A model generated the notes under the pieces. The model saw only the letters and a list, made by a program, of their open reading frames with translations, was not told the origin of the DNA and did not search any database. From assembly GCF_041886205.1 (NCBI RefSeq), contig NZ_CP169029.1: a DNA stretch of 64,000 nucleotides; one strand, written 5' to 3'. The position numbers and the translations under genes were made by a program. Within the stretch, counting starts at the first letter, position 1; each line of letters opens with the position of its first letter. Positions 60,967 through 64,000 of the stretch are shown here, piece by piece. The DNA is from Escherichia coli. GTDB lineage: Bacteria > Pseudomonadota > Gammaproteobacteria > Enterobacterales > Enterobacteriaceae.

Positions 60967-61126
60967 ACCATATTAGTTACAACATCCTATGTGCCTTTAT
61001 CATTAACAGGTGCCACATGCAGCGCCTGTTAATGTTGTAAGCTTATAGGTAATTTGTAAGTAGCGTCTTGAGAATGTGATCGTAATCACGTTTAATAGGG
61101 CGACTTTTCCACGCCTGAAGATAACC

Positions 61127-62041
61127 ATGATTGTTCGTCCACAACAACACTGGCTGCGCCGTATTTTTGTCTGGCACGGCTCAGTATTATCCAAGATATC
61201 CTCGCGCTTACTACTCAATTTTCTCTTTTCTATCGCTGTTATTTTCATGCTGCCCTGGTACACGCATCTGGGCATCAAATTCACCCTCGCACCGTTCAGC
61301 ATTCTCGGTGTTGCCATCGCCATTTTTCTTGGTTTTCGTAATAATGCCGGTTACGCCCGTTACGTTGAAGCGCGAAAACTTTGGGGGCAGTTGATGATTG
61401 CCTCACGGTCGTTACTACGTGAGGTAAAAACGACATTGCCGGATTCGGCAAGTGTAAGGGAGTTTGCCAGGCTGCAAATCGCCTTCGCTCACTGTTTACG
61501 CATGACATTACGCAAACAGCCACAGGCGGAAGTGCTGGCACATTATCTCAAGACTGAAGATCTTCAGCGTGTACTGGCTTCGAACTCTCCAGCTAACCGT
61601 ATCTTGTTAATAATGGGGGAGTGGTTGGCGGTTCAGCGCCGCAATGGGCAGCTTTCAGATATCCTGTTTATTAGCCTCAACGATCGGCTTAACGATATTT
61701 CAGCGGTTCTGGCAGGCTGTGAGCGCATTGCCTACACGCCAATTCCCTTTGCCTACACCCTGATTTTGCATCGTACCGTTTATCTGTTTTGTATCATGCT
61801 GCCGTTCGCGCTAGTCGTGGACCTGCATTACATGACGCCTTTTATCTCTGTGCTGATTTCCTATACTTTTATTTCGCTGGATTGTCTGGCGGAAGAACTG
61901 GAAGATCCGTTCGGTACTGAAAACAATGATTTACCGCTGGATGCCATCTGCAACGCTATTGAAATTGACCTGTTACAGATGAACGATGAAGCCGAAATTC
62001 CAGCAAAAATTCTTCCCGATCGTCATTACCAGCTGACGTGA
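61127..62041 (+). CDS. yneE: bestrophin-family membrane protein
   Basis: 304 aa from MIVRPQQHWLRRIFVWHGSVLSKI...; multi-TM. Confidence 0.7.
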   Translation: MIVRPQQHWLRRIFVWHGSVLSKISSRLLLNFLFSIAVIFMLPWYTHLGIKFTLAPFSILGVAIAIFLGFRNNAGYARYVEARKLWGQLMIASRSLLREVKTTLPDSASVREFARLQIAFAHCLRMTLRKQPQAEVLAHYLKTEDLQRVLASNSPANRILLIMGEWLAVQRRNGQLSDILFISLNDRLNDISAVLAGCERIAYTPIPFAYTLILHRTVYLFCIMLPFALVVDLHYMTPFISVLISYTFISLDCLAEELEDPFGTENNDLPLDAICNAIEIDLLQMNDEAEIPAKILPDRHYQLT

Positions 62042-62044
62042 TAA

Positions 62045-62803
62045 TTACTCCGTACGGCGGGCAACAATAAAAAGACGCGGAAATGCCAGCAGTATCTGTC
62101 CGTTCTCTTGCAGTGGATACTGCTCTTCCAGCATCTGATGGTAGCGCGTAAGAAAAAGCTGCTGTTCGCTCTCGGTCAGATCCTGTAACCACGGACGTAA
62201 TCCAGTGGCGGTCACCCAATCGATAATCGCCTGGTGCGACGGCATCTGGTGATAGTAGGTGGTTCGCCAGATATCGACCTCACATCCGGCTTCGCTCAAA
62301 ATATCGTAGTAAGCATGAACGCCAGCCAACGGCTCACGCCCGCGATCCGGGTAGTTTTGTTCCCAGGCAACTTCGCGCATGAGCACATGGGTCGGCTCCA
62401 GCCAGTTATCTGGCATCTGTACTGCCAGCACGCCCTGCGGATTAAGTAAAGAAACCAAGTGAGGAAACAATTCGTAGTGGTCGGGCAGCCATTGCAGTGA
62501 GGCATTAGCAAAAATCAGATCGAGTGCCTGTTCCGGTTGCCAGTTGCGGATGTCTGCTTCCACGAACTGGCAGTCTGGCAAAGCACTGCGCGCTTCAGCA
62601 ATCATCGCCGGAGACGAGTCGATGCCTGTTATCCTGGCCGCAGGCCAACGTTGATGCAGCAGGGCGGTGCTGTTACCTGGGCCACAGCCAAGATCGGCAA
62701 CGTATTTGATATTCTCCAGCGGCACTCTGGCAAGCAGCTCCACCGCCGGACGCGATCGTTCAGCGGCAAAGTGCAGATATAAAGAGGGGTTCCAGTCAGA
62801 CAT
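62045..62803 (-). CDS. tam: trans-aconitate 2-methyltransferase
   Basis: 252 aa SAM-dependent methyltransferase ([10 protein letters not shown]); RBS GGGAG. Confidence 0.85.
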
Positions 62804-62890
62804 TTATTTACTCCCGTCAGCGCGTTACCCCAATTGTAGATAAAACTGTTGACATCCTCCACGCCCTGAATGACGAGGATCCTGCTACGT

Positions 62891-64000
62891 TCAGGCTGTC
62901 GCCTGAATCATTTCGGTGGGTTCCTGCTTCAACGGGCGGCCTGACTGCACCATCCCTCCACAGGCAAGAACGGCGTGCCCCGCCGCTAAAATGTTACGAG
63001 CGCCATTTACATCGGCGTTCGCTGTATATCCACATACCTGGCATCTGAATTTACTTTGTGACAGGCGGTTCTCTTTCGCTGTATGACCACAGTACGCGCA
63101 ACGCTGGCTTGTATACGCTGGCGGAACAGCAAGCACCTGACCGCCACGCCAGAGCTGCTTGTACTCAAGCTGGCGGCGCATTTCATACCAGCCCTGATCC
63201 AGTATCGAACGGTTTAAACCTGATTTTGCCCGGACATTGCGCCCCGGCTGGCTGACCGTACCCGCTGCTGACTTTGACATGTTGCTGACCTTCAAATCCT
63301 CAATGACTATCATTGCGTGGTTTTTGCTGACGGTCGTTGTGACTTTGTGAAGGTAGTCCCTGCGGATATTTGCGATACGGGAATGCAGTCGCTGTATTTT
63401 GCGTTTCTGCTTCTGCCAGTTGTTGCTGAATTTGACCTTGCGGCTTAACTGTCGCTGAAGTCTCGCCAGCTTCTTCTGGTTTTTCTGAAAACTGTTTACA
63501 GGCTCAAAGACTGTACCATCTGACAGCGTGGCGAGTTTAGCCACGCCAGCATCCAGCCCGATCATTGATGCTGAAGGGTGAACCGGAGTTGATACTTCAC
63601 TTTCTGTCTGAATACTGATGTGCCACTTACCGCAGGACTGGCTGACCGTGACATTTTTCACAACACCCGTGACCTGACGGCTATTCCGGTAGCGCATCCA
63701 GCCCAGTTTCGGCAGAAAAATACGGCTGTTTTCCTGATCGAGCTTAACGCCCTGCGGGTAGCGGAATGCATCATTCTGTCCCCGCTTTTTGAATCGGGGA
63801 AAAGCAGCCCGCTTCTGGAAGAAGTTTTTGTAAGCCCGCTCAAGGTCTTTCAGTGACTGTTGCAATGGCTGTGACGGGGCATCTTTAAGCCATTGCGTTT
63901 CAGTGGCATTTTTCCACTCAACCAGCCAGGAAGCCATTTTCCCGTAAGGGATGTATTTATTACCGGCCTCATGATTCTCATTCTGACGTGCCAGAGCACG
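62891..64000 (-). CDS. tnpB: IS200/IS605-family TnpB (OrfB) protein, 5' end beyond the window
   Basis: C-terminal zinc finger CAYCGH...CQVCG and RuvC-like region; frame stays open upstream of the track's Met to position 64000; an 18-bp hairpin overlaps the stop. Confidence 0.8.

Follow-up and report, generated by a model that had tools for sequence, protein, structure and literature searches.

The end of the window, a term used here for the whole stretch of 64,000 nucleotides of Escherichia coli DNA that was analyzed (contig NZ_CP169029.1), carries the gene tam and, upstream of it, a minus-strand open reading frame (ORF) that has its stop codon at 62891-62893 and stays open to position 64000. 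At the nucleotide level, positions 62000-64000 match the genome of E. coli strain wlxctx60 (NZ_AP045833) with 100% identity. In this strain, the region can be followed beyond the window edge and shows the gene order tam, an ORF of 402 aa, a divergently oriented IS200/IS605 tnpA, lsrG, lsrF, lsrB and other lsr genes. PGAP names the ORF of wlxctx60 “RNA-guided endonuclease InsQ/TnpB family protein” and also annotates, in the interval from tam to lsrG, a tnpA of the IS200/IS605 type. The ORF is the insQ/tnpB gene of IS609, an ordinary, catalogued mobile element that is found here at a rare site just upstream of tam (Table 1).

Table 1. Features of the IS609 copy and its tam-side flank, given in window positions
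Feature	Position	Strand	Basis or remark
tam (trans-aconitate 2-methyltransferase)	62045-62803, ATG at 62803	-	downstream neighbor, co-oriented with tnpB
Putative 16-20-nt guide, CAGTTTTATCTACAATTGGG	62829..62848	-	flank directly 3' of the right end; also tam leader
IS609, right-hand 1152 bp	62849..64000	-	alignment of copies at three sites; K-12 RefSeq IS609 annotation
Right-end terminal tetranucleotide TCAA, putative right-end cleavage site	62849..62852	-	common to copies at three chromosomal sites; divergence right after
Putative ωRNA scaffold	62849..62993	-	overlaps the last 34 tnpB codons and runs to the right end; RNAalifold covariation; 5' limit approximate
Right-end subterminal imperfect hairpin, TTCA loop	62858..62879	-	helix 6; three pairs with compensatory change; TnpA-type
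Internal scaffold helix 5 around the 62890-62907 hairpin	62887..62911	-	10 pairs, 97.9% of cells paired; spans the stop codon
tnpB/insQ, codons 34-402 and stop	62891..64000	-	complete 402-aa gene in wlxctx60 (L001 8892-10100)
RAGATH-18-core-like stem-loop, CCUGUGGAG...GUUGAAGCAGGAA	62921..62964	-	Rfam alignment; helices 2 and 3
RuvC catalytic D363 codon (NADVNG)	63011..63013	-	aligns to the aspartate of ISDra2 DRDENA
Zinc-ribbon C334/C337/C353/C356 (two CxxC pairs)	~63032-63100	-	just upstream of D363; conserved relative to ISDra2
RuvC catalytic E267 codon (VIEDLK)	63299..63301	-	aligns to the glutamate of ISDra2 GTEHLK
RuvC catalytic D183 codon (GLDAGV)	63551..63553	-	aligns to ISDra2 D191; window atc = GAT on the minus strand

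An IS609 copy in the lsrG-tam spacer

The ends of the element were set by aligning copies from three chromosomal sites: lsrG-tam, gltX-yfeD and ydcL-ydcO of K-12. The three copies have CCGGTGCGCC...GGAGGATGTCAA in common and diverge directly outside these sequences, and the termini CCGGTGCGCC...GGATGTCAA are identical to the limits of the mobile_genetic_element feature “insertion sequence:IS609” in the K-12 RefSeq annotation. The copy has a total length of 1747 bp, and the part outside the window corresponds to window-equivalent positions 64001-64595. In dozens of related loci on viral contigs, nucleotide homology extends no further than the counterpart of position 62849, beyond which lie unrelated flanks; the TCAA terminus is also found in most of these relatives. 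An alternative boundary, ...GTCAAC with a left flank of TTTATC, was rejected, since both the alignment of the three sites and the annotation of K-12 give ...GTCAA and TTTAT. The termini CCGGTG... and ...GTCAA form no inverted repeat, which is a membership feature of IS200/IS605 elements. Every testable defining feature of the IS200/IS605 family, IS605 group, is present in the element, and nothing was found that contradicts its identification as IS609.

In each of the three chromosomal copies, the flank adjoining the left end reads TTTAT. When the viral-contig relatives are included, nine distinct left flanks can be compared, eight of which read TTAT and one TTAC, and from knowledge of the family TTAT would also be the target-adjacent motif (TAM) of the associated nuclease. 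In K-12, lsrG and tam are separated by 56 bp; therefore, the element represents an insertion into this spacer and not a gene replacement. The initial annotation had described it as lying next to tam where K-12 has a different gene. The adjacency was correct, and the gene next to tam in K-12 is lsrG, but replacement did not take place: lsrG has been displaced and is retained beyond the other end of the element in wlxctx60. The joined flanks of the tam-site copy, ...GAATTTAT/CAGTTTTATCTACAATTGGGG..., occur in O157:H7 and further genomes (H71-H73) as an empty site that matches at 100% over 256 bp, and the O157:H7 joint reads TTTAT/CAGTTTTATC.... The existence of this exact empty joint confirms both boundaries to the base and establishes that no target duplication occurred. 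IS609 was thus inserted into the 56-bp lsrG-tam spacer, 3' of TTAT, without target duplication. The K-12 spacer exhibits an A instead of a G at the third base after the joint (window position 62846; region of L002:4317), while G is present here and in the O157:H7 empty sites. This difference was considered as a possible boundary problem and dismissed as a single-nucleotide polymorphism, since the G allele occurs as an empty site.

IS609, its InsQ/TnpB and this particular insertion, which is annotated in RefSeq in 30 genomes, are already known. At a coverage of at least 80%, IS609 is found in 4858 of 5426 complete E. coli genomes (~90%), whereas the lsrG-tam insertion is restricted to 30 of them. 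Most copies reside at fixed sites, for example gltX-yfeD and ydcL-ydcO, where tnpA is broken and insQ is intact (402 aa) with a dN/dS below 1. Five tam-site copies from different strains (L001 and L056-L059) differ by 11-51 nt of 1747, a divergence that equals the one among copies from different sites. Consequently, the lsrG-tam insertion is either old or has been spread by recombination. The tnpB gene is intact, with 402 aa, in the window strain and in four of the five tam-site copies checked. One of these copies (L056) combines an intact, K-12-like right-end hairpin with a frameshifted tnpA, while another (L057) carries a frameshifted insQ in an element that is 11 bp shorter.

The two co-oriented genes tnpB and tam are separated by 87 nt between the tnpB stop codon and tam, and 45 nt lie between the end of the element and the tam start codon. 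A consensus scan of the minus strand from the tnpB stop codon to the tam ATG (62804-62890) identified neither promoter-like nor terminator-like sites, and tam is therefore probably reached by read-through from the element. In K-12, tam sits at the end of the AI-2 (lsr) gene cluster. The insertion places 1.75 kb of element between tam and the lsr genes, and expression of tam could be changed in the few carrier strains. As a separate observation, lsrA, encoding the AI-2 transporter ATPase, is annotated as frameshifted in wlxctx60 (L001:14871-16396, outside the window), so that in this strain the cluster located upstream of the insertion may not function.

TnpB and TnpA of the element

The translation of 62894-63997 comprises 368 aa without a stop codon, and in wlxctx60 the gene begins with a GTG codon at window-equivalent position 64099. 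In the part inside the window, Pfam searches detected OrfB_IS605 at E=2e-34 and a Cas12f1-like TNB zinc ribbon at E=7.5e-24, and the complete protein contains HTH_OrfB_IS605, OrfB_IS605 and Cas12f1-like_TNB. It scores 384 bits against the NCBIfam model guided_TnpB, the cut-off of which is 100, and its residues 3-376 align with the ISDra2 TnpB structures 8bf8, 8exa and 8h1j (E=6.5e-57). The initial annotation of an IS200/IS605-family TnpB at the window edge agrees with Pfam, NCBIfam and the IS609 identity, and the ORF listing and translation likewise bear out a minus-strand frame that is open to 64000. It had further recognized a TnpB-like C-terminus with a RuvC-like region and a zinc finger. 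Both domains are present, but far more than the C-terminus is contained in the window, namely 368 of the 402 residues. As it had anticipated, the 5' end and tnpA lie outside; they were found, together with both ends of the insertion sequence, when the window was extended in the identical strain wlxctx60.

The aspartate, glutamate and aspartate residues of the RuvC site (D183/E267/D363) are present, and the concern that the ORF might be a truncated pseudogene lacking them is thereby removed. Selection analysis by the Nei-Gojobori method gave tnpB dN/dS values of 0.07-0.13 relative to relatives with 84-95% protein identity and values of mostly 0.1-0.33 among the E. coli copies, where substitution counts are small; L035 was left out of this set because of an indel that puts its frame out of register with the other sequences. 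By analogy with characterized members of the family, the protein is predicted to be an RNA-guided RuvC nuclease, and nuclease activity would be expected of it. An IS609 TnpB is among the proteins that were purified and tested in a study of candidate RNA-guided nucleases, the text consulted giving no result for it (PMC12781874). A literature search for TAM or cleavage data on IS609 returned none.

The tnpA gene corresponds to an uninterrupted ORF at L001 10123-10689 in wlxctx60. Its product aligns with positions 2-121 of the 121 in the Y1_Tnp profile (E=1e-40) and with positions 2-126 of the 126 in transpos_IS200, and it carries the motifs HVH and YIEQQ. However, the stop codon has been lost, and the frame reads through the left end of the element into the lsrG flank to give 188 aa instead of ~137. 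This read-through accounts for the PGAP label of the wlxctx60 gene as a pseudogene or incomplete. In the relatives L029-L031, TnpA is intact, with ~137 aa and the ending ...EQQETPS*, whereas the K-12 and yfeD-site copies of tnpA exhibit internal stop codons or frameshifts. The single IS609 of K-12 underwent zero transposition events in mutation-accumulation lines (PMC5009759). Among the viral-contig relatives, several loci (L006-L011, L016, L036, L049) have an IS609-type left end only ~84 nt upstream of tnpB (locus position 1117, with the tnpB start at 1201). These are tnpA-less derivatives that consist of tnpB and the RNA only.

Hairpins and the predicted guide RNA

A hairpin, TTCAGGCTGTCGCCTGAA (TTCAGGC-TGTC-GCCTGAA), with a 7-bp stem and a 4-nt loop is located at 62890-62907 across the tnpB stop codon, exactly as first described. 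Perfect 7-bp stems with loops of 3-8 nt occur 46 times in the window vs. ~23 times in shuffled sequences, and taken alone this hairpin is unremarkable. Similarly, single-sequence folding of a 165-nt region yielded no extra stability compared to shuffles (z=-0.95), for which reason comparative evidence alone was used. The significance of the hairpin derives solely from comparison among relatives: the helix that holds it (helix 5) is kept in 19 distinct relatives and shows compensatory changes at two pairs, AU to GC in four sequences and GC to AU in two.

The relatives were obtained from a scan of viral contigs, which provided 51 loci with TnpB proteins 64-100% identical over the best matched segment, some of these loci holding a short gene fragment. 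RNAalifold analysis of 20 sequences revealed a multi-stem structure of 44 pairs, seven of them with compensatory changes. In a 39-pair version, 97.6% of the cells are paired, as opposed to 37-48% when the partners are slid, and changes on both sides occur at seven pairs compared to a shuffle mean of 3.2, with none of 500 shuffles reaching seven. This conserved, covarying RNA structure ends at the right end of the element and would represent the ωRNA scaffold. Its transcription would be in keeping with what is known of the family. The initial annotation had likewise sought the guide-RNA region at this place. It had, however, taken the 62890-62907 hairpin for the terminal right-end structure, which is not the case: the hairpin belongs to the interior of the RNA scaffold, where it forms a stem 38 nt upstream of the end of the element, and is not a terminal hairpin of the TnpA type.

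The structure at the right end proper is the imperfect hairpin at 62858-62879, located 10 nt from the TCAA terminus. Compared to CCACGTCC-TTCA-GGGCGTGG of K-12, it contains two mismatched pairs and an adjacent 1-nt deletion. A similar hairpin, CCCCGTCC-TTCA-GGGCGGGG, is found 16 nt inside the left end, and the right-end structure is a subterminal hairpin of the kind recognized by TnpA Y1 transposases. The end-hairpin positions of IS609 match the geometry established for IS608. The adjoining flank would provide the guide, a placement that follows the architecture of TnpB ωRNAs (PMC8612924).

A covariance-model search for a guide-RNA scaffold, which had been proposed as a check, gave sub-threshold matches. 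An Rfam scan of 61000-64000 with permissive thresholds matched HgcC (RF00062) at 62836-62958 on the minus strand (E=0.012; 23.6 bits vs. a gathering score of 50) and RAGATH-18 (RF03064) at 62921-62964 on the minus strand (E=0.02; 28.1 bits vs. 44.9). Both matches are below their gathering scores, and no match to a curated ωRNA family was obtained in this region. HgcC is described as having the right-end-like UUCA tetraloop of RNAs overlapping tnpB 3' ends (PMC4615843), and RAGATH-18 as the guide-RNA scaffold of IS607 TnpBs (PMC11061315).

Right ends vary among the relatives in two further respects. Four loci (L016:2307-2463, L043:2323-2479, L045:2322-2478 and L044:1357-1513) have the upstream part of the RNA and the last 12 nt (GGAGGATGTCAA) in common with IS609, while their middle RNA module differs and is 11 nt longer; right ends and guide-RNA scaffolds are therefore mosaic. 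In six others (L050, L020, L046, L022, L018 and L047), the right end reads GTCAC instead of GTCAA. Since the flank GCTGCCTCTTTAA is identical in all of them, this group probably represents one insertion site in related prophages in which the terminal base was changed.

Present-day mobility, which might be presumed from knowledge of the family, is doubtful for this copy of IS609, since its right-end hairpin is weakened, its TnpA has lost the stop codon and the K-12 element did not transpose (PMC5009759). The sub-gathering Rfam scores and a single-sequence fold that is no better than shuffles add to the doubt about its present-day activity.

Proposed mode of action, alternative explanations and relation to known systems

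Taken together, these findings are very probably best explained by an IS609 copy in the lsrG-tam spacer with divergent tnpA and tnpB genes, a peel-and-paste mode of transposition and an RNA-guided TnpB with its ωRNA. In this model, TnpA would bind the left and right subterminal imperfect hairpins, and the single-strand “peel and paste” reaction would move, or would once have moved, the element. TnpA would excise and insert the top strand, cutting after TTAT at the left end and after TCAA at the right end, and no target duplication would be generated. The ωRNA would be transcribed across the last part of tnpB and on through the right end (~62993 down to 62849) and would fold into the multi-stem scaffold, while its 3' guide would consist of the first 16-20 nt of the flank, from 62848 to ~62829. 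The TnpB-ωRNA complex would then cut the empty lsrG/tam joint flanked by TTAT, and repair by recombination from an occupied copy would restore the element. The O157:H7-type allele offers a perfect match to the presumed TAM (TTAT) together with the target CAGTTTTATCTACAAT, and the K-12 allele mismatches the predicted guide at position 3, in its TAM-proximal part. The tam-site allele is thus a clean natural example of the “homing” design of TnpB, in which the guide matches an unoccupied E. coli allele beside TTAT.

A different view of the same locus would be that of an immobile relic, in which TnpA is dead and TnpB and its RNA are kept for host use or simply since nuclease action protects the locus from being lost. 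Such a state would fit the presence of IS609 in most E. coli genomes at mostly fixed sites, where tnpA is interrupted next to an intact tnpB, as well as the low dN/dS of tnpB, the lack of transposition events in K-12 (PMC5009759) and the weakened right-end hairpin of the tam-site copy. However, the dN/dS values within E. coli are based on small substitution counts, and no result indicates a host function. In addition, the tnpA ORF of this particular copy is uninterrupted and retains the HUH and Tyr motifs, and the close relatives L029-L031 have an intact TnpA of 137 aa. The insertion is also polymorphic and rare, and its exact empty allele occurs in other genomes, which is what a mobile element should show. 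Overall, a relic is considered unlikely. A further and improbable reading is that the insertion has rewired tam, which would be transcribed by read-through of a tnpB/ωRNA transcript whose guide is the tam leader. Together with an intact TnpB beside a dead tnpA in ~90% of E. coli, this could point to a host-level role of the TnpB-RNA pair of IS609 beyond selfish retention, for example in regulation or locus maintenance.

Two further explanations were rejected. The putative guide falls within the 45 nt between the end of the element and the tam start codon and hence in the tam leader, and domesticated TnpB repressors exist in enterobacteria (bioRxiv 10.1101/2023.11.30.569447); one might therefore think of a TldR-like, nuclease-dead TnpB that acts as an RNA-guided repressor of tam, with the guide placed in the tam leader for regulation. 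Yet the protein is full-length, its RuvC triad and zinc ribbon are complete, and the element retains tnpA and both of its ends. The guide is just the sequence that happens to flank the right end, and it varies by insertion site. Moreover, its own locus has no TAM beside the target, as the element sits between the two. Intact catalytic residues, the loss of which defines TldRs, render this possibility exceedingly improbable. Equally, the ORF might be seen as a decaying, functionless pseudogene fragment and the hairpin as a chance inverted repeat, given that 7-bp hairpins are common by chance, that the insQ gene of one tam-site copy (L057) is frameshifted and that PGAP marks tnpA as a pseudogene. 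The catalytic residues, the integrity of the tnpB ORF in this strain and in all but one of the five tam-site copies checked, a dN/dS below 1 and the compensatory substitutions that accompany conservation of the hairpin in relatives argue against such decay, which is judged highly improbable.

The closest known counterpart is IS609 of K-12 (insQ/ydcM, b1432, and the pseudogene yncK; NC_000913.3 1503161-1504908), which has the same termini, the same TTTAT left flank and divergent tnpA and tnpB genes. The two copies have lengths of 1747 bp here and 1748 bp in K-12 and differ at 32 positions (~98% identity), and TnpB comprises 402 aa in both. They are found at different sites, lsrG-tam here and ydcL-ydcO in K-12. 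The tnpA gene is uninterrupted in the copy described here (stop-loss, 188 aa) but contains an internal stop codon in yncK, whereas the right-end hairpin, with two mismatched pairs and the neighboring 1-nt deletion here, is intact in K-12.

Neither hallmark of TldRs, i.e., loss of RuvC residues or truncation of the C-terminus on the one hand and missing transposon ends on the other, applies to the element, as the triad is intact, the protein full-length and both ends present. The Rfam families HgcC and RAGATH-18 correspond to the tnpB 3' region in part, the RAGATH-18 match retaining the outer stem only, and the UUCA tetraloop of HgcC/sotRNAs also caps the hairpins at both ends of IS609.

Homology to TnpB of ISDra2 from Deinococcus radiodurans extends over the full length, and the RuvC D/E/D residues and the CxxC...CxxC zinc ribbon are found in both proteins. 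The TnpB-ωRNA complex of ISDra2 is an experimentally and structurally characterized RNA-guided nuclease of the IS200/IS605 family (PDB 8bf8, 8exa, 8h1j; PMC8612924). According to the literature, the ISDra2 RNA is encoded over the last part of tnpB and the adjoining right end and takes its guide from the flank, and the IS609 copy would share this arrangement. The systems differ in their target and TAM, which is TTGAT in ISDra2 and, judging from the flanks, would be TTAT here, and in the orientation of tnpA, which is co-oriented in ISDra2 and divergent here.

IS608, IS605 and IS606 of Helicobacter pylori belong to the IS605 group and provide the paradigm for peel-and-paste transposition. Like these elements, the IS609 copy encodes a Y1 HUH TnpA, has subterminal imperfect hairpins and is inserted 3' of a tetranucleotide without duplication. 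Its target is TTAT and not TTAC, and host and sequence differ. Its right end is TCAA as in IS608, the details of which are established in the literature, and its tnpA is divergent as in IS605 and IS606.
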